This document shows, piece after piece, positions 3,012 through 33,945 of a DNA stretch of 64,000 bases (positions within the stretch are counted from its first letter, which is position 1; each line of letters opens with the position of its first letter). A program made the position numbers and the translations under genes. The stretch comes from Torpedo marmorata (lineage: Eukaryota), in NCBI GenBank assembly GCA_977017645.1, contig OZ360222.1, positions 230,330,001 through 230,394,000 of the forward strand, given 5' to 3'. The notes under the pieces were generated by a model. The model saw only the letters and a list, made by a program, of their open reading frames with translations, was not told where the DNA came from and searched no databases.

Positions 3012-5084
3012 GTAAGTATTTCATCCTCAGTACCATTTCATTTTCTTTGCTCATTCTATAGGATAGGTTTTTTTAAATATTCTTCCCAAAAGCATGTTCT
3101 AATTCCTTTTAGTTTTCACTCTTTGCCTTTTGTGCTATATTATTCTGCATTTGAAGAAAAGCGCAGCAAAAGTTGCTCTCCATTCATTCTTTGGGCCTGC
3201 AACAGTCAGTGAGGAAATGATTGTAAAGTTATATGTATCTGACTTGCTGCACTAAACCTCAAGGTTCCTCAGGTTAGTTCCTTAATTGTGTGACTTCTAA
3301 TGTAAGTAGCGTATCGTGAGATCTACAGTGAAACAGTACAAGATGGAAGTGAATACACTTGCTGTTCTTTACTATGCACATTTGGAAAAACTGCATTAGG
3401 TTCAGATTTATCCTTTTTATGATTTATTACCAGATTTGCATTGTGTTCATTACTTGACTGCAGCTAAATTTGACAATTTTGCCTAGGGTAGGGTTGTGTT
3501 AAGACTGGCTTCCTTTCAGTAGCTTACCCAAATTGCAGTCCTTATCTGAGCCAAGACAGCGAGTCTTGACAAGCTGTTCATCTTTCGGAAAGCATAACAA
3601 CAGAGTCCACTCTCTCCTCAATCAACATCCACACAAGCAGTTTCCAGCAGGACCACAGGATAGCTATCAAGAGTGGGAACCTTGCCTATTTCTCCTCTCA
3701 TTTGTGTTTCCCTATGGCCATGCTGCATGAGATCAAGTAATTTGGCACAGACAGGGTTTGTATCTAATCACACAGGTTATTACAGTTCACATTCTATTCA
3801 GAGTTCCTCCTCCTAACATTTTGCAGAGGAAGAAAATTAATCATGTGACAGTGTTGCTTTCTCTTAATTTCTCATTGATTTATTAGTTGCAAACTTTGTG
3901 GTAATTTTAACTGAGTAATGAATTCTTTAACAATCAACATGATCATAGACCAAATACATTAAATATCCTAAAACTGAGGTTCCTTTAGTGCCATCTGATT
4001 TTAAATAAAGTGTAAAATGCAGTAACATTGCTTTATGTTGATTTATAAAAAAATTGAGATTGCAGAGCATTTTATAGTGAAGAATATTGCCTTCCTTGGT
4101 GCGATCACTCTTATAAATCAGTTCAGCAATTTTTCCTTGCATTCAGAGACCTGAGTGAGATCACTGTATTTTCAATTCTTCTTAAGTAATTTTATGTATA
4201 TAAAATGAAATGTCATGTAATGCTTTTGCTGTTTGCACTCATCTTGTATTGCACTTTCCAATTAATCTAAAGGGCTGACTAATGACATTAAAAGGATTGC
4301 TTGACAGTTACTACTCATGAGTCCACTTCTGCCTTAAAAATTGTATTTATTTGTTCTTTTAGTATCCCATAAATTGGATTTTATTTTCACACACTCAAGC
4401 CATTGCCACCTGCATCCACCCCAGAGATGTATCCATAGACCTACCCCTATCATTCCCTGACACCCTTTGTGACCACTTTTGCATGTGTACATTGACAATA
4501 AACAGCTCTGACTCACTACCTCCCTCTCCTCTCTTTTCAAGTCCATCTGTATTGTTGGACCTCAAAGCTTGGATGATTTTGTTTTTTCTCCAGCGCAGAG
4601 TTGGGAAAGTTAGATATATCAACTTCAGCATGCAGAAAAATCTGCATTCGCTTGTCACTGATTCCATTCTCTCCCTAACCACTGCCTGAGATTGTATAAG
4701 ACTGTCAACCACGTCATTATCCGAAAGAAGGAAGTGAGCATTTTTTGCATTCTCCAATGCAAAAATACATCTCTGACCGCAGAGGTGATGCAACCAAGTC
4801 ATCTTACCTACTACTGAAACCCTTAATCATACCTGTAGCAACACAATGTTCAACTGAATGATCATCTGGCATTCTGTCCTTCGCCTGTCAACTTCTCTTT
4901 ACCTAATGATCTGCACCTGCCACACATCAAATTCTGTCCTGCGGTGACTCCTGTTCTTGCTAACCTACAAATGCTTTCAATTCTCAAATTTTAAAAAAAT
5001 ATTTAAATCTATTTATTGCATTATTCCTCTTATTTCCTCTAAACACAAATTCCCCTCACTTTCCAGCTCATTATTCCTCCAACT

Positions 5085-5280: not shown

Positions 5281-6105
5281 GGCACTGCCGGAGCCGCTGT
5301 AGCGGCAGCGCTGCCACTGGTGCGGACCCGCGGGGAGCAAGGGAGCGGAGATGCAGCACTCCCGCGGGGTCAAGCCGCCCAGTCGACTGCCGTCGGCTCC
5401 GCACAGGCTTTGAACGACCCGTTGAGGGAGCCGATGGTGGTTTTATTTGAGATCCCGCAGGTGCAGGGTCTGCGCCCAAGATGGCAGCGCCTATTAATCG
5501 GCAGCAGCCACGAGGGGCTGCAGACTCTGGGGAAGCGGAGGACTAGAGCAGGGCACCAGAGGACGGAAAGATCACCCCCCACCCCGTCTGAGAAGGAGAA
5601 GCGGAGGAGACGACCGTGTGGCAGACCAGTGATGGGCTCTGAGGCTGAAGGACTAGTGCATGCGGCGGGCTGCTGGCGACTGGAGGCGAGGAACCCGTGG
5701 AGGCTGTGGGCTGCTGGAGACTGCTGTCGGGAGACTCGCGCCGGGCTGCGGACTGCTGGAGGCTGGCTCGAACTGGCTGGAGGAGTACCAGGTATCGCAA
5801 CCGGGATGCAAGGGGGTGCCGAAGGGTTCCTGAACGTGTCGGAGGTTCGGATCTGAAGTTCGGGTTGCCGGTGGCTTGGACTAGACTCAGTGTGGCTGCG
5901 GAAGCGCTGGAGGCGAATCTACGGACACTCGGTGACTCTGGGGGGACTCTCTTTTGCTTCTCTTTCTCTGACTGTAAGGAATGTTAGAGGCGCTTAGGCA
6001 ATTTCTGCCGGTGGCGAATCTGTCTGCCTTGCAGCAGGCAAAAAGAAATTTCATGTAATATGACACTGTTTTATTACTATGACAATAAATTGAATCTTGT
6101 TCTTG
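5281..6105 (+). mobile_element. Copy 2 (apparently full length) of the ~820-bp GC-rich non-coding repeat
   Basis: Starts ggcactgccggagccgctgt, ends atgacaataaattgaatcttg; high identity to 46865-47703. Confidence 0.8.
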
Positions 6106-6984: not shown

Positions 6985-8400
6985 TGGAAAAGTCATCCCT
7001 TCGAGATGAAATGCATAGTCAATATTACTAAAGAAGTCAAAGTGAAAATTGCAGACAGCGCGACTACATTTTTCCAGACCTCTTTGCACGTAGGAGAATG
7101 ACAGGATTGTAAATGCTACATTGTTGTTTAAGAATGAAGACCAGGATAAAACCTGGCAGCTCCAGGCCAGTCAGCATATCAACAGTGGTGGGAAACGTTC
7201 AATATGTAATCCAGGATAAATTAAATTGGTATTTGGAAAAGTATGTCTTAATTTATATAAAACTGCAGATTTTGTTTAAAAGCAAATTGCATTTGATAAA
7301 TTTGATAAAGCCCTTTGAGGTAAAGGAAAGAGGCAATGAAGACAGTGGCTGATGCATAAATGGACAATCCAAAGGTGTTAGATTTATTTGTTAATAAAGT
7401 AGAAGTACAGTATGTGGAGTTGCAGAGGCAGTGTCTGTGGTATGAATGGGCTTAGGGACAAAAACCAGAACTGTGTTTGCAGTTGAGAGACCTACATACT
7501 GATGTTGCCAGTATTTAGATTGGAGCCATTGCTCAATTTGCTATTACTTAATGACTTGGACATTAATTGCATAGTATACAGACATAATTTTAACATTTGT
7601 TGATGAAACAAAATGTAGATCTAGAGTAGTCAATGAGAAGTATGAATCCAAAGATGTAGACAAAGCAACTACCAACACTGAAAAGTGAAAATGGTTTCAT
7701 TCTGATGGTAAATGAAGCAAGGCAAATAAAAACCATATAGTTCAAAGTTCAGATTTATTGTCAGAGTACATACATGACAGTATTAAAGAAGTAGAAGACA
7801 AAACTGCTCAAGGCTTCAGGACGCAGCCTCCTCGGGATGCATGTGTGAATCTTTGAAGGTGGTATGGCAAGTTGAGAAGGCTGCTTGAAAAGGATTTGAC
7901 TTCCTTGAGTATACTTGGACATCTGGAGTTCAAAAGCAAGGAACTTATAGTGAGCTTTGTGCTATTAAAAAAGAACCCCTAGCTGTAGTTTTGTATCCAA
8001 TTTCAGGCATTGCATTTTTGGAAGGATGTGTAGGTGTCAGATTTAAAAGAATCCTCTCAGAGATGAAATCTTCATTTTAGTGGTGAGACTAAAGATATTG
8101 GAATGGTTCTCCTTAAGCCAAATAAGGTTAGCACATGATTTGATGAGATGTATAAAATCATAATTGCATAAATAAGGAGATAATGTTGAAAGTGACAAAG
8201 AATTGCCAAAAGAACCAAAGTGAAATGAAAAAAAGAAAATATACCATAAGTGACTATAATCTAGAATGGATTCCACAGTGCAGTGAAAGAAAGATTTTAA
8301 AAAAGAATTAAATAAATACTTGGAATGGAAATATTTAAGGACCAAAGGAAAGAACAGTGTGATTTCAGTCACTACAAGCTAGTCATTTTAACCTCAATGG
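6985..8400 (+). mobile_element. Highly decayed CR1 LINE remnants; the last piece is split by the LTR element and continues at 11201
   Basis: Degenerate RPVSISTVVG (7160-7190), FVDETK (7597-7612); 8373-8400 joined to 11201 reads YKLVILTSMVGMLLKTLIQDRI (CR1 YRPVSLTSVVGKLLE.II). Confidence 0.7.
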
Positions 8401-8547
8401 TGTCGTGTATTTTCCCTTTGAAAATAACCTCACTCGAGAGAAGCTGTAAGCATCTTTATTCGTGCCAAGATGGCACCAAACTGAACCTCCCCATACAATG
8501 TAACTCCGTGTATATGACGTCACGCGCACTTGCGCGTTCCCATAACA
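8401..8547 (-). repeat. 3' LTR (147 bp, TGTTAT...ACGACA)
   Basis: Immediately follows PPT GAGGGGGAAGAG; contains TGACGTCA (8515-8522), GGTGCCATCTTGG and AATAAA; about 95% identical to 10994-11135. Confidence 0.88.
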
Positions 8548-8559
8548 CTCTTCCCCCTC
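8548..8559 (-). other. Polypurine tract
   Basis: Minus strand GAGGGGGAAGAG directly before the TGT of the 3' LTR. Confidence 0.85.
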
Positions 8560-9344
8560 AAAAAAAAATGTTTTGTGCTTACTGGTAAATAGGTATAAAG
8601 TTAAATTTAACTATGTTAACACTACAGAGAATTTAAGCACAACTTCCACTAATCATGTTAACTATAGATCCCGCGCTACCTAACTTAAAATGTATTAACT
8701 GGAAACATACAAAGTCTTTAAGTCACCGCCCATAATCTTTGCGATGTACTGAATAAAGTATTTAAGTCACTGCACATTGTCTTTTAAATGTACTGGAGGG
8801 TGTCTTTCTCTCTTGGATCTTCTCGGGGATGAAGAACACTGAACCAGAGTACGACTTTCCAACTTTTTTGGAGGTTTGTTGAGGAGGTTTAATTTCCAAA
8901 GAATCATCCTCTTCACCTCGATCCTCTATCGATCCTTCTCGTCTGTTTGGTAAATTGTGAATGGTTATCTCCATCTTGTGTTCTTGAAGCTCTCCTTCCT
9001 CCAGTGAGTCTCGCTTAGATTCCCTGTCATCCAAGTTTTTCAAACGTTTCCCATCAACCTTTTTCTCCTGTTCTCGCCGTTTCTGCCTTTCCCGTTCTCT
9101 ATGTGCCTTATCTTGTTCCTCTCATTGCCGTTTCCTTCGCTCATGTTCCCTCTCTTTTTCCTTATCTTTATCCTTCCCTCTCGTGTTTTCCCATTTCTTT
9201 GCTCATTTCCTTGAAGATTTTTAAGTTCATCTCATCTGCCTTAAGTGCCCTGAAGACTTTAAATTCTTTGAGTTTCTTCGTAACAGTCTTCGTTTCCCAT
9301 GATTCATTTCTGAAGACTTCAGCTGAACGGCTTCGATGCCTTCG

Positions 9345-10301
9345 TTTTTCATCAGAAATCTTCAACCAGTCCCACAGGTTAATTAAAAAACACAAAATGC
9401 TGGAGAAACTCAGCAGGTCAAACAGTGTATTAAAGGGCTCAAGCCCGAAACGTCAGTTATGTATTTCTACCTTTGCTACATAAAAGACACTGTTTGACCT
9501 GCTGAGTTTCTCCAGCATTTTGTGTTTTTTACTTCAACCACGGTGTCTACAGATTTTCGTGTTTTACCACAGGTTAACTATTTGACTTCTCAGCTCTGAG
9601 CACTTTGCTTCATTCTGAGCCCTCTTCAACTCCAGCTGTTGAAGTAATGTTTTCAGGCCTATAATATTCTCATTGGACAGACAGAATGCATCCTCATCCT
9701 CACACACAATATCTCTCTCAAAGCTAGTGTCAGGCAGTAGATCAAGTTCATCCATGCACAAAATGATTTTTTTCTTCGTTTCTACAAACTCAGCCCTTCT
9801 GCGTTCCTTTTCTTCATTAAGTGAAGCAATGTGCTGACGAAATGCATCCAGCTGTTCAACACTGGGGACAGCATCCTAATCAATTGTTGTACACAATATA
9901 TCACAAAACTCTTCATCTTCCTCCTTAAGGCACTTTAATTTTGTCATCCTCTCTTTCTTCTCCTTCAAAAGAACCTCCAAACGTGTCCGCAAATCTTTTT
10001 CGATCTGCAGCATTGTGTAATCTTCTTCTGGCAGACATGCATCCAAACCGAGTTCCTGACACACTGCATGGAGCTCTTTCTGGCACACAGCAATGCTCTT
10101 TTTCAGCCGCTGCCATAAATTTTCTTCCTCTGCAATCATCATATCCAAAAGGCCCTTAATATGCCTTTTAACAACTTCTGTTCTTTGCAGTCTTTGATCT
10201 TCTGGAATTCCAATCTCTTCCCAGATATTTCGAAGATGGGAAAGTGCTGCATTGAGACAGGTGACTGACTCGCTGGTGAGTGCATCGCTTTTCTGCACCA
10301 T
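9345..10301 (-). pseudogene. PRC1: Intronless PRC1 (protein regulator of cytokinesis 1) retrocopy, about codons 1-255, one in-frame stop (9876-9878) and a Penelope-derived insertion
   Basis: MVQKSDALTSESVTCLNAALSHLRNIWEEIGIPEDQRLQRTEVVKRHIKGLLDMMIAEEE...KDLRT...*DAVPSVEQLDAFRQH...LCMDELDLLPDTSFERDIVCEDEDAFCLSNENI...RSQIVNLW|DWLKISDEKR matches the recalled vertebrate PRC1 N-terminus; no introns. Confidence 0.93.
9383..9566. mobile_element. Short Penelope-derived insertion with 44-bp inverted arms, inside the PRC1 copy
   Basis: 11-bp TSD CCACAGGTTAA (9372-9382, 9567-9577); inverted arms 9385-9428 and 9487-9530; hammerhead remnant gggctcaagcccgaaacgtc shared with 50560-50582. Confidence 0.82.
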
Positions 10302-10329
10302 CCTCCGGGCTGGCTGCGTTTGGCTTCGG

Positions 10330-10712
10330 CTGTCTGGCCCTGGGTGTCTGGCGGCTGGCTCCGTCTGTCCGGCCTCCATCTGGGCGTCTGGCCCCCGGCT
10401 GTTCAGACCCTCGCTGGGCGTCCTGCCCCGGCTGTCCCAGCGGTCCCTGTCCCGGCCCCTCTATGGGTGTCCTGTCCCCGGCTATTCGGCCCCTCTCTTG
10501 GCGTCTGGCCGCCGTTTGTTCGGCCCCTCGCTGGGCGTCCTGCCCCAGCGGTTCCGGCTGCTCGGCCCCTCTGTGGGCATCCTGTCCCCGGCTGTTCGGC
10601 CTCTCTCTTGGCATCTGGCCCCTGGCTGTCCCGGCCCTGGCTGTTCGGCCCCTCTCTTGGCGTCTGGCCCCTGGCTCTCCCGGCTGCCTGGCCCCTCTGA
10701 GGGCGTCCTGCT
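10330..10712. repeat. GC-rich imperfect tandem repeats inside the LTR element, upstream of PRC1
   Basis: Recurring ggctgttcggcccctc(tcttggcgtctggcc / gctgggcgtcctgcccc); followed by a (CT)-rich tract at 10713-10800. Confidence 0.85.
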
Positions 10713-10977
10713 CCCTTTCTCTCTCATTTTCTCCCTTTCTCTCTCCCTTTCTCTTTTTCTCTCTCTCACTTTCTCTTTTTCTCTTTTCTTACTTTTTTGT
10801 CGTCTTCCTCTCTAGTTTCTACCTTTTTTCCTGCTGCCGAGCATGTGCTTTCGTCTCGCTGCAGCTCGACGTCGTTCCTGTCGTCGTTCTTTTTTCAACA
10901 AATTTTCACCTCCGATATCCTTTTTACCCAAAATCCTGTAGATCCCATCGTCCGGAGTGTGGAATTATTATTTTTTT

Positions 10978-10990
10978 ATCCTCGTCGCCA
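10978..10990 (-). other. Primer-binding site complementary to the tRNA-Ser(GCU) 3' end
   Basis: Minus strand TGGCGACGAGGAT, 3 nt after the CA end of the 5' LTR; plus strand ATCCTCGTCGCCA equals the recalled 3' end of vertebrate tRNA-Ser(GCT) plus CCA. Confidence 0.82.
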
Positions 10991-10993
10991 CTT

Positions 10994-11195
10994 TGTCATG
11001 TATTTTCCCTTTGAAATAACCTCACTCGAGAGAAGCTGTAAGCATCTTTATTCATGCCAAGATGGCGCCAAACTGAACCTCCCCATACAATGTAACTCCG
11101 TGTATATGACATCAGGCGCACATGCGCGTTCCCATGAATAAAGATGCTTACAGCTTCTCTCAAGTGAGGTTATTTCAAAGGGAAAATACATGACA
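10994..11195 (-). repeat. 5' LTR (10994-11135) with an appended inverted 62-bp copy of its U5 end (11134-11195)
   Basis: 10994-11055 and 11134-11195 are reverse complements with 1 mismatch; junction at palindromic CATG. Confidence 0.88.
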
Positions 11196-11200
11196 AATGG

Positions 11201-12410
11201 TGGGAATGCTTTTGAAAACATTGATCCAGGACAGGATTATACATCTGTAGGAAACTGCATAGAATAAGACAAGACATCACAAGTTTCTTCATGGCAGCTC
11301 CAGTTTAACCAATTTGATTGATTTTTTGATGCGATAACAGAGTTAAGGAGGGTAATGCAGTCAATGTGTGTGGGGCCTCCAGAACACTTCTGATAAAGTG
11401 CCTCATTACAGGCCTATCAACAAAGTCAGGGAACATGGCATGAAAGGGCATTGATAAAATGGATAAGAAATTGGTTCAGTAATAAATAACTCAGGGTCAC
11501 GGTGAACTGTTATTATTCAAATGAGAGGAAGATGAATAGTAATGTTTCACGGGAATTGGAATTTTTAATCTCTATTAATGTCTTGAATCTGGGGATGCAG
11601 GCCACAATTTCTAAGTGTGTAGATGACACAAAACTTGACAATATTGTGAACAGCAGGGAGGGTACTGATTAGTTGCAGCAGGCTGATGGAATGGACACAC
11701 ACATGCAGGTGAAGTTTAACGTGGAGAAATGAGGTGATGCATTTTGGTTAGAAGAATGAGGAGTGACAATATAGAATAAAGGATACTGATGTAAAAAAAG
11801 ATGCAGGAGCAATGAAACCTGGAGGGGTGAACCACAATCATTGAAAGTGTCAGGGCAGGTTGAGAAAGTGCTTAATGAGGTTACATGGTTTTGGCCTTCA
11901 TCAATCTGGAGGTATAGAGAGTAAAAGGAAGGAAGTAATGCTGAGCCTTTTGTAAAACTGGTCCAGCCTCAATTTGAACTCTCTTCAATTTTGTTTGCTA
12001 CATTTATAGGAAACAGGGGAGGGAGTTGGAGAGAGGGTCCGTAAAAGATTTGGGACTAGGGATACTGGGATTAGGGACGGTTGTTACGAGGATGGATTAG
12101 AGATGCTAGGACTGGTTTCTTTAAAGAGAAGGATGAGGGAAGATTTGTTGGAAGCATAAAAAAATGGAAACATCTGAATAGAGTGGATATTTGTGGGGGA
12201 CTGGTTGAGGATGAGAGGGCACAGATATAAAATAAGTGATAGCGAATAAGTAGTGACATGAGGGAAAACTTCCTTATGTAGAGTGTGGTTGTAATCTGAA
12301 TGCATTCCTGCGATGGAAACAGATTCCATTGTGGCCTTCCAGAGGGAACTGAATAAGTGAATTATGAGGAAAAGTTTGCAAGGCTACAGAGAAAGGGCAT
12401 GAGGATTAGT
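11201..12410 (+). mobile_element. Decayed CR1 RT region (continuation of the element interrupted at 8400)
   Basis: Degenerate DKVPH (11392-11406), SKCVDDTKL (11610-11636), HFG, and 3' YRVWL..NAFL motifs. Confidence 0.72.
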
Positions 12411-31402: not shown

Positions 31403-33945
31403 TGTCAGTAAAAGGGCACAGGCAGAGCTCCATTAGTAGGGGGAAGGGCAGAGCTCTGATGGTCAGTGACAGGACACGGGCAGAGTTCTGATGGTCAGTG
31501 ATATGGCACAGGCAGAGTTCTGATGGTAAGGGCAAGGACACAGTCAGATGTTCGATGGTCATTGACAGGGCACACGCAGAGTTCTGATGGTCAGTGACAG
31601 GGCACACGCAGAGTTCTGATGGTCAGTGACAGGGCACACACAGAGTTCCGATGGTCAGTGACAGGGCACACGCAGAGTTCTGATGGTCAGTGACAGGGCA
31701 CACGCAGAGTTATGATGGTCAGTGACAGGGCACACGCAGAGTTCTGATGGTCACTGACAGGGCACATGCAGAGCTCTGATGGTCAGTGACAGGGCACACG
31801 CAGAGTTCTGATGGTCAGTGACAGGGCACACGCAGAGTTCTGATGGTCAGTGACAGGGCACACGCAGAGTTCTGATGGTCACAGGGCACACGCAGAGTTC
31901 CAATGGTCAGTGCAAGGGCACACGCAGAGTTCTGATGGTCAGTGACAGGGCACACGCAGAGTTCTGATGGTCAGTGACAGGGCACACGCAGAGTTCCGAT
32001 GGTCAGTGACAGGGCACACGCAGAGTTCTGATGGTCAGTGACAGGGCACACGCAGAGTTCTGATGGTCAGTGACAGGGCACACGCAGAGTTCCGATGGTC
32101 AGTGACAGGGCACACGCAGAGTTCTGATGGTCAGTGACAGGGCACACGCAGAGTTCTGATGGTCAGTGACAGGGCACACGCAGAGTTCCGATGGTCAGTG
32201 ACAGGGCACACGCAGAGTTCCGATGGTCAGGGCACAGGGCAGAGTTCTGATGGTCAGTGACAGGGCAGAGTTCTGATGGTCAGTGACAGGGCAGAGTTCT
32301 GATGGTCAGTGACAGGGCACACGCAGAGTTCTGATGGTCAGTGCAAGGGCACACACAGAGTTCCGATGGTCAGTGACAGGGCACACGCAGAGTTCTGATG
32401 GTCAGTGATATGGCACAGGCAGAGTTCTGATGGTAAGGGCAAGGACACAGTCAGATGTTCGATGGTCATTGACAGGGCACACGCAGAGTTCTGATGGTCA
32501 GTGACAGGGCACACGCAGAGTTCTGATGGTCAGTGACAGGGCACACACAGAGTTCTGATGGTCATTGACAGGGCACACGCAGAGTTCTGATGGTCAGTGA
32601 CAGGGCACACGCAGAGTTCTGATGGTCAGTGACAGGGCACAGGCAGAGTTCTGATGGTCATTGACAGGGCACACGCAGAGTTCTGATGGTCAGTGACAGG
32701 GCACACGCAGAGTTCTGATGGTCATTGACGGCACACGCAGAGTTCCGATGGTCATTGACAGGGCACACGCAGAGTTCTGATGGTCATTGACGGCACACGC
32801 AGAGTTCCGATGGTCAGTGACAGGACACACACAGAGTTCCGATGGTCAGTGACAGGACACAGGGCAGAGTTCTGATGGTCAGTGACAGGGCACACGCAGA
32901 GTTCTGATGGTCATTGACGGCACACGCAGAGTTCTGATGGTCATTGACAGGGCAGAGTTCTGATGGTCAGTGACAGGGCAGAGTTCCGATGGTCATTGAC
33001 AGGGCACACGCAGAGTTCTGATGGTCAGTGACAGGACACACGCAGAGTTCCGATGGTCAGTGACAGGACACACGCAGAGTTCTGATGGTCAGTGACAGGA
33101 CACACGCAGAGTTCTGATGGTCAGTGACAGGGCACACGCAGAGTTCCGATGGTCACTGACAGGGCACATGCAGAGCTCTGATGGTCAGTGACAGGGCACA
33201 CGCAGAGTTCTGATGGTCAGTGACAGGGCACACGCAGAGTTCCGATGGTCAGTGACAGGACACAGGGCAGAGTTCCGATGGTCAGTGACAGGACACACGC
33301 AGAGTTCTGATGGTCAGTGATATGGCACACGCAGAGTTCCGATGGTCAGTGACAGGACACGGGCAGAGGTCTGATGGTCAGTGACCGGACACAGTCAGAG
33401 TTCCGATGGTCAGTGACAGGACACAGTCAGAGTTCCGATGGTCAGTGACAGGACACAGTCAGAGGTCTGATGGTCAGTGACAGGGCACACGCAGAGTTCC
33501 GATGGTCAGTGACAGGACACAGGGCAGAGTTCCGATGGTCAGTGACAGGACACACGCAGAGTTCCGATGGTCAGTGATATGGCACACGCAGAGTTCCGAT
33601 GGTCAGTGACAGGACACGGGCAGAGGTCTGATGGTCAGTGACCGGACACTGTCAGAGTTCCGATGGTCAGTGACAGGACACAGTCAGAGTTCCGATGGTC
33701 AGTGACAGGACACAGTCAGAGGTCTGATGGTTAGTGACAGGACACGGGCAGAGGTCCGATGGTCAGTGACAGGGCACACGCAGAGTTCTGATGGTAAGGG
33801 CAAGGACACCGTCAGAGTTCCGATGGTCAGTGACAGGACACAGTCAGAGGTTCGATGGTCAGTGACAGGACACAGTCAGAGGTCTGATGGTTAGTGACTG
33901 GACACAGGCAGAGGTCCGATAGTCAGTGACAGGACACGGGCAAAG
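31403..33945. repeat. Intronic minisatellite, unit about 32 bp GCAGAGTTCTGATGGTCAGTGACAGGGCACAC, roughly 80 copies
   Basis: Direct tandem reading with variant units (26-bp deletions; GGACACAGTCAG variants toward the 3' end). Confidence 0.97.

Follow-up and report, generated by a model that had tools for sequence, protein, structure and literature searches.

A few-hundred-copy Gypsy LTR element family of Torpedo marmorata carries serially captured, spliced pieces of six host genes fused in one reading frame

We find that spliced pieces of six host genes were picked up serially by a family of Gypsy LTR elements that numbers a few hundred copies, and that these pieces were fused in one frame. 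Individual copies decay neutrally, while the lineages that spread kept the frame open and held its amino-acid sequence loosely. The capture mechanism itself is already known; what is new is the number of genes, the kept frame and a cargo that leans towards the spindle. We establish here the anatomy of the element, its donors, its partner element, the order of capture, the neutral decay of copies and the keeping of the frame on spreading lineages. The copy from which the analysis starts lies on the minus strand at positions 8401-11195 of the window, by which we mean the whole 64,000-nucleotide stretch of DNA that was analysed, and is a decayed non-autonomous Gypsy LTR element without gag or pol. 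Its features are as follows.

8396..8400, no strand: left copy of the 5-bp target-site duplication, with five identical letters at 11196-11200
8401..8547, minus strand: 3' LTR (TG...CA), a direct repeat with 10994-11135, 10 differences in 147
8548..8559, minus strand: polypurine tract, a purine run adjoining the 3' LTR, read from the sequence
8560..8862, minus strand: Gypsy 3' non-coding tail, 85% identical to the integrase-LTR interval of the gag-pol element L086
8863..9069, minus strand: CDK11B piece 2, parent CDS nt ~74-283, exons 1-3, a jump back within the mRNA
9070..9350, minus strand: CDK11B piece 1, parent CDS nt 319-601, exons 3-5, including a 126-nt alternative exon
9343..10301, minus strand: PRC1 CDS nt 1-773 (codons 1-258), six exons, intron-free, with its own ATG at 10301
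9383..9566, no strand: later palindromic insertion, seen in the window copy alone, which interrupts PRC1; it measures 184 nt and brought an 11-nt duplication
10302..10700, minus strand: GC-rich repeats, which are tandemly expanded PRC1 5' UTR, 67-81% identical to the UTR repeats of the parent's exon 1
10701..10800, minus strand: AG-rich simple repeat of varying length, no origin found
10801..10977, minus strand: Gypsy leader, 82-94% identical to the leaders of the gag-bearing elements L086 and L085
10978..10990, minus strand: primer-binding site (PBS), common to the gag-pol elements
10994..11135, minus strand: 5' LTR, first ~6 nt absent, a direct repeat with 8401-8547
11133..11195, plus strand: inverted copy of the LTR inner end, 65-nt arms, 98% complementary, inside the target duplication
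11196..11200, no strand: right copy of the 5-bp target-site duplication, matching 8396..8400

The LTRs of the window element are 95% identical to those of L086, and its leader and tail are 82% and 85% identical to the corresponding parts of that element. When the 6.2-Gb genome was searched for the LTR end together with the PBS, 56 exact matches were found, with none for a reversed control. Thirty such loci were retrieved, and PRC1 was present in 15, gag or pol in 10, and neither in 5. The relatives L086, L087, L089, and L090 have the order gag-PR-RT-RNaseH-IN, as judged by Pfam on eight natural frames. Like the Ty3/Gypsy partners L086, L087, and L090, the window element has the LTR, PBS, leader, tail, polypurine tract, and 5-bp duplication, but unlike them it has no gag or pol. 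No frame of 170 amino acids, where the env gene of an endogenous retrovirus would lie, was found in L086, a decayed copy, between the end of the integrase frame at 4965 and the LTR start at 5450. We take the PBS to be of the tRNA-Ser type, which presumably points to an affinity with the Mag clade. No tRNA genes were found within the 64-kb window, and an Rfam search of 8300-11300 gave three weak matches, all far below the gathering score. An origin as a LINE-made processed pseudogene was considered and excluded: the element holds internal mRNA pieces between LTRs, and not an mRNA 3' end with poly(A) and without LTRs.

The PRC1 part of the window element matches PF03999 and is 95% identical to six exons of an intron-bearing parent PRC1 in the same genome (contig C76); in another copy, L031, this part resembles residues 5-262 of human PRC1 (4L3I). 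An initial annotation of the window had recognised N-terminal PRC1 here, correctly, and had set its extent at residues 1-255, which we revise to codons 1-258 (parent nt 1-773). A longer capture was also considered, as a Pfam MAP65_ASE1 match reached position 282, but the parent exon shows that PRC1 ends at nt 773. What had been described as a charged tail is in fact CDK11B, present as two pieces in swapped order (parent nt 319-601, then a jump back to nt ~74-283), with parent exons that are 97-100% identical. The tail is 92-94% identical to shark and ray CDK11B, and the parent gene lies on contig C60; a PDB search with the tail gave no matches.

The same annotation had proposed that the element interior was formerly one continuous chimeric frame made up of the repeats, PRC1, and the tail. 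Its frame arithmetic holds: one frame runs along the minus strand over 10811-9567 with three TAG stops, and removal of the insert at 9383-9566 takes out 184 nt plus the 11-nt duplication, or 195 nt, a multiple of three. Once the insert is removed, PRC1 joins the tail in frame, as it does in 26 of 29 insert-free copies. All three TAGs are present, one of them (9876-9878) within the PRC1 part, where it aligns at codon 145 beside a deletion. These are not the only breaks, however, as CDK11B piece 1 of the window copy carries a 2-nt deletion near 9182 and a TGA stop at 9122-9124. The window copy also has in-frame deletions at ~9884 and ~9073. Because the breaks in the window copy are private or recurrent, and because the joins are in frame across copies, we conclude that the progenitor had one continuous frame.

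This frame did not include the repeats as its N-terminus. The repeat region is PRC1 5' UTR and has no conserved frame; the exon-1 5' UTR of the parent contains the same repeat unit, has no ATG in 300 nt, and has an in-frame stop 64 codons upstream. Across copies, between 296 and 881 nt separate the PBS from the PRC1 ATG; the phase is not fixed, and no upstream ATG sits at a common position. The three sense frames of the repeat region contain 2, 3, and 0 stops in ~163 codons; stops are rare in all three, so their scarcity reflects base composition. The PRC1 ATG is retained in 25 of 29 window-type copies and in 34 of 37 copies of the derived kind described below. Since this ATG is kept while the stretch upstream of it varies, the chimeric frame begins at 10301. 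From there the expected window-type frame is about 450 codons long and stops ~34 codons into the Gypsy 3' tail, a stop position taken from natural copies.

The window element is one of many. The PRC1-CDK11 join had at least 35 matches in the genome within one mismatch, with none for a control, using a probe whose sensitivity can be gauged from a neighbouring 24-mer that caught 24 of 29 known copies. One PBS locus contained a TPX2 domain, and a genome search then scored 150 TPX2-domain matches among 295 candidates; 40 TPX2-domain loci, picked partly for long open frames, were retrieved whole. Derived copies have their parts in a fixed order: PRC1(1-95), the TPX2 C-terminus, PRC1, CDK11B, a CENP-E repeat, POLR3F, and mostly also ANKRD26. 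Intron-bearing donor genes for PRC1, CDK11B, TPX2, ANKRD26, and CENP-E are present in the same genome. For POLR3F, one parent exon was found, and a search for the parent through a neighbouring gene gave no matches. In the elements, six PRC1, five CDK11B, four TPX2, and six ANKRD26 exons are joined without introns and on the sense strand. The captured parts are 91-98% identical to their parents (93-97% for the six ANKRD26 exons), adjoining donor matches overlap by 4-15 nt at the joins, and every captured piece is purine-rich (59-72% A+G).

A phylogenetic tree built on parent coordinates (78 rows and 465 columns; 12 of 89 copies were dropped for gaps) has the form of a ladder, branch supports not having been read, in which copies with PRC1 and CDK11 are basal, those with TPX2, CENP-E, and POLR3F follow, and the ANKRD26-bearing copies form the crown. 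Window-type copies branch in a star-like manner near the parent. The crown lineage has lost 2+1+3 codons and accumulated many residue changes in the first 55 PRC1 codons, and its PRC1 beyond codon ~95 is replaced by TPX2.

The family is common to more than one species, since the CENP-E-to-POLR3F join is also present in an NCBI protein from Narcine and a 756-nt assembled contig from another organism spans both window-type joins. The run behind this contig is guessed to be RNA and could contain traces of DNA, and the contig is therefore read as presence only. The same applies to a contig from a second run that crosses the PRC1-CDK11 join, as hundreds of DNA copies could yield such contigs; the parent's spliced CDK11B is found in contigs of three of the four runs covered, including the one with the 756-nt contig. 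Host proteins come closest to Narcine bancroftii, as would suit an electric ray: a captured ANKRD26 piece is 85% identical, and the TPX2 parent differs at 22 of 373 sites. Of 401 representative proteins the best 150 were examined; apart from the Narcine protein, none of these spans two modules as its best stretch, and none is a full-length fused protein.

The copies, judged by the differences between their LTR pairs, are old and decayed. The median divergence of LTR pairs is 6.1% in 17 window-type copies, and the range is 1.6-13% in 10 derived copies; a perfect 5-bp target duplication, read by eye, flanks 17 of the 27 copies with both LTRs, and 4 of 5 letters agree in 5 more. Changes were counted relative to the parents, with no consensus built, in 40 window-type and 49 derived copies; for POLR3F and CENP-E, natural copies served as the reference, as only one POLR3F parent exon was seen. 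For changes private to single copies, pN/pS outside CpG sites was 1.14 in window-type and 1.01 in derived copies, and at the level of lineages it was 0.47 and 0.64. Stops make up 55 of 1168 private changes. Most private indels are frameshifts, with only 12 of 73 in window-type and 22 of 93 in derived copies being in frame. In a part sample, none of 29 window-type and none of 37 derived copies had an intact frame, for which ~450 and ~700 codons are expected; the longest frames from the start codon were 399 and 473 codons, respectively. Taken together, none of the 66 sampled copies is intact, and private pN/pS, at 1.0-1.1, is neutral.

These results bear on what the fusion was for. The initial annotation saw its point in a fusion protein, the PRC1 N-terminus with its tail, that would be able to dimerise with host PRC1 though not to bind microtubules, and that could affect the spindle midzone or germline bridges. 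The window-type cargo does correspond to human PRC1 residues ~1-258, which include the dimerisation-rod part at 1-168, and a fusion protein, if made, would plausibly dimerise; this 1-168 part is reported to bind CENP-E and Kif4A (10.1101/2023.03.11.531660). Yet the claim finds no support beyond domain content: decay is neutral and 0 of 66 copies are intact, the most widely spread lineage has shortened and degraded its PRC1 N-terminal part, no full-length fusion is seen among the best 150 of 401 representatives, and a copy gains no advantage of its own from encoding a trans-acting protein. We consider this the least probable of the readings discussed here.

We next turn to the frame on lineages. 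Ten of eleven widely shared joins are in frame, and in the main rows 90-100% of carriers are in phase (43/45, 40/41, 34/34, 32/32, 31/31, 29/30, 29/30, 26/29, 16/18, and 12/12). The one exception is the return from ANKRD26 into POLR3F, an out-of-frame join at which the frame terminates. An out-of-frame CENP-E-to-ANKRD26 join in L105 and L118 was rejected as a counter-example, as these loci share 98.5% identity across 2.4 kb that takes in flanking sequence and are likely one duplicated insertion. The joins alone are nonetheless weak evidence, because short matches of 6-10 nt favour the frame without selection (45-57% between genes, 51-88% within genes) and because rearrangements seen in single copies are often in frame too (11 of 21, and 8 of 9 clean ones). 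The p-value of the join test is 0.03 if the in-frame rate is taken as 0.6, and 0.65 if it is taken as 0.89.

It could thus be that there was no selection at all, that switches at short matches simply land in frame, that master copies are few and short-lived, and that the cargo mirrors abundant germline mRNAs. The frame bias of short matches and the clean single-copy rearrangements fit this reading, as do the shared purine-richness of the captured pieces and the star of window-type copies close to the parent, for which an open ancestral frame is the default. A vertebrate survey likewise reports that formation bias is set by the supply of germline transcripts (10.64898/2026.06.26.734816). However, the join past the stop (POL1 to POL2) is out of frame, being in phase 2 in 4 of 4 carriers, and small indels, which need no long match, also respect the frame. 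Seven small indels are common to at least five derived copies, and all are multiples of three; two are probably parent-side and were set aside. When crown copies are compared with basal ones by net length, 6 of 6 changes within the frame (-6, -3, -9, -3, -3, and +24) are divisible by three. In the leader and tail this holds for 0 of 5 (p=0.002, or p=0.008 if the +24 is left out), and among private indels for 22 of 93 (p=0.0003). The contrast with leader and tail comprises 11 events, all from the derived subfamily, and its intervals were picked once the list of indels was known. This contrast in indels says that translation mattered, and we regard the absence of selection as unlikely, though worth keeping in mind.

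Substitutions point in the same direction less sharply. No stop is found among 62 changes common to at least five copies, versus 55 of 1168 private changes (p=0.054), and the pooled N:S ratio is 38:24 at the level of lineages versus 823:290 for private changes (p=0.038), such that there may be some amino-acid constraint on lineages. A frameshifting 2-nt deletion occurs in 6 of 35 window-type copies, including the window copy; it lies in a dinucleotide run, and its carriers are scattered on the tree.

Why, then, was the frame kept? The explanation that we favour, and to which we give close to an even chance, is that translated RNA survives and is packaged better, and not that the protein is useful. 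Pieces would enter the element through template switches in particles supplied by the gag-pol partner, and selection would work in cis, on the RNA that each element makes for itself. An interior left untranslated over a long stretch would be expected to trigger decay or silencing, which could be escaped by an RNA that ribosomes read for the greater part, starting at a strong start codon of host origin and stopping a few hundred bases short of the LTR. The cargo may mirror purine-rich mRNAs that are abundant where particles form in the germline. A trans-acting protein, by comparison, aids broken and intact copies equally, and therefore could not keep the frame lineage by lineage. Counting against a translation requirement, mini-Ty elements of yeast are reported to move without internal frames (PMC4974528).

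Alternatively, the protein sequence could matter in cis. PRC1, TPX2, and CENP-E are spindle proteins, ANKRD26 is a centriole protein, and CDK11 is a kinase with a mitotic isoform. The coiled coils of the nascent chimera might serve as an address label, dragging their own translating RNA to germ-cell microtubules or centrosomes, where packaging or access to chromosomes would be better. Such a label would account for both the kept frame and the spindle-leaning cargo, every later capture marks a subfamily that spread, the weak amino-acid constraint on lineages (p=0.038) agrees with it, and centrosomal mRNAs are described as localising through the nascent protein (10.1101/2020.09.04.282038). Set against this, POLR3F is not a spindle gene, the PRC1 N-terminus is eroded in the crown lineage, the CENP-E piece is a repeat from the middle of the stalk and not the C-terminal PRC1-binding motif (10.1101/2023.03.11.531660), and a set of six genes is too small to test for enrichment unless compared with a germline transcriptome. 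We judge localisation in cis distinctly unlikely, and are more doubtful again of its fuller form, in which a host-derived label evolved by the serial capture of PRC1, TPX2, CENP-E, and ANKRD26, and every new piece gave rise to a subfamily that did better than the one before. A spindle bias, should it prove genuine, would tie the assembly or targeting of retrotransposon particles to the germline division machinery.

A further possibility is that the captured sequence works at the level of RNA, as camouflage or in conflict with the host, with pieces of essential division genes making it costly for the host to silence the element. This has been proposed for plants and partly shown for Drosophila telomeric elements with captured piRNA-pathway genes (PMC13534243); the close identity of the copies to their parents would suit it. 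But no reading frame is needed for such an effect, and the parents show no speed-up in the captured parts, with 4/131 versus 6/149 sites for CDK11, 9/183 versus 26/510 for ANKRD26, and 10/114 captured versus 12/259 other sites for the TPX2 parent (p=0.15). We find this very unlikely, and return to better survival and packaging of translated RNA as our preferred, if tentative, account.

Known systems offer several points of comparison. LTR-mediated retrocopies, for which capture by template switching is known in animals, as described by Tan et al. 2016 (PMC5131818) resemble this family in that partial, intron-free, sense mRNA pieces replace element genes between LTRs, with short shared sequence at the joins, further transposition, and chimeras of at least two genes. 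The present family likewise has LTR-flanked mRNA pieces on the sense strand that have lost their introns, and has transposed onward with target duplications of its own. It differs in that the retrocopies of that study are mostly young and low-copy, while here there are six serial donors, a few hundred copies, a distribution over more than one ray species, and statistical signs that the frame was kept. Maize Bs1, another LTR element, combines fragments from three host genes in one hybrid frame and is reported to be transcribed and translated (PMC13317346), whereas the present vertebrate family has six genes, no intact copy among 66, and is known from DNA. The Drosophila telomeric elements share repeated capture from one functional class, and capturing families among them reach higher copy number (PMC13534243); in contrast to the present family, which is an LTR family with an in-frame coding fusion and parents that are not faster, they are non-LTR elements that act via piRNAs. 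The literature covered, which did not extend to subscription journals or to supplements of bioRxiv papers, gave no report of this family or of these genes being captured by LTR elements in rays; supplements of the vertebrate retrocopy survey could list these loci.

The family is a natural, many-copy record of LTR exon shuffling in a vertebrate, in which donors, partner, and capture order are all readable. Its hundreds of copies separate changes on the spreading lineages from decay after insertion, which makes it testable whether captured sequence helps through RNA, translation, or protein. There are also consequences for annotation. A retrocopy survey places SUDS3 among the top parents in cartilaginous fish (10.64898/2026.06.26.734816), and this and a second source attribute retrocopies to non-LTR elements (10.64898/2026.06.26.734816; PMC13320880). 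Copy-rich "retrocopy" counts in cartilaginous fish may instead stem from LTR families and not from LINEs, and one copy of the present family has apparently been filed as an RPC6-like gene in Narcine.

In the window element (8401-11195, minus strand), the 5' LTR has lost its outer end; in its place stands the inner end of that LTR, copied in inverted orientation (11133-11195), and this fold-back end still reads TG. Because the 5-bp target duplication flanks the element outside the inverted segment, the DNA integrated with the fold-back end already present. The other features of the window considered here are as follows.

9383-9566: palindromic repeat of 184 nt, with an 11-nt duplication
9190-9315: CDK11B alternative exon of 126 nt, in the captured piece (host gene, contig C60, 1344374-1344499)
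14645-16804, 55292-56452 and 62562-63998: long frames resembling LINE reverse transcriptases, as judged by eye
31448-33937: minisatellite, 79 units of 32 bp

The palindromic repeat, which interrupts the PRC1 part and may be Penelope-like, recurs near many unrelated loci. Rfam returned nothing reaching the gathering score across window 8300-11300, this insert included. The 126-nt CDK11B exon also occurs in some shark and ray isoforms, and is skipped in the parent-type CDK11B contigs of three runs of guessed type (X1, X2 and X6); its capture may mark the tissue in which the event took place.

We found that both ends of the CENP-E piece carried by the derived subfamily match the last repeat exon of the parent gene (contig C2, 266011500-266021400), and that the piece also matches the start of the exon that follows. 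Its middle has no close match within the 9.9 kb of this region; the element may preserve a repeat exon since lost from the host gene. Basal derived copies hold the POLR3F coding sequence nearly whole, through to its stop (e.g. locus L076, 2622-3780), and what follows that stop looks like the POLR3F 3' UTR. The Narcine bancroftii protein XP_069759224.1, labelled RPC6-like in the database, begins with the CENP-E-to-POLR3F join and retains the ANKRD26 join in its first few residues; it is likely a copy of this element family annotated as a gene.

On contig C25, 14 TPX2-bearing matches are clustered within 2.5 Mb (202.74-205.22 Mb); they show the same few scores and have an identical stop in common, and likely form a segmental-duplication array. 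Among 30 LTR-plus-PBS loci, half carry PRC1, 10 carry gag or pol, and five carry neither as judged by motif. Loci L051, L068, L069 and L070 were singled out in this tally, and L070/L084 is an element of 1.75 kb with both LTRs present.
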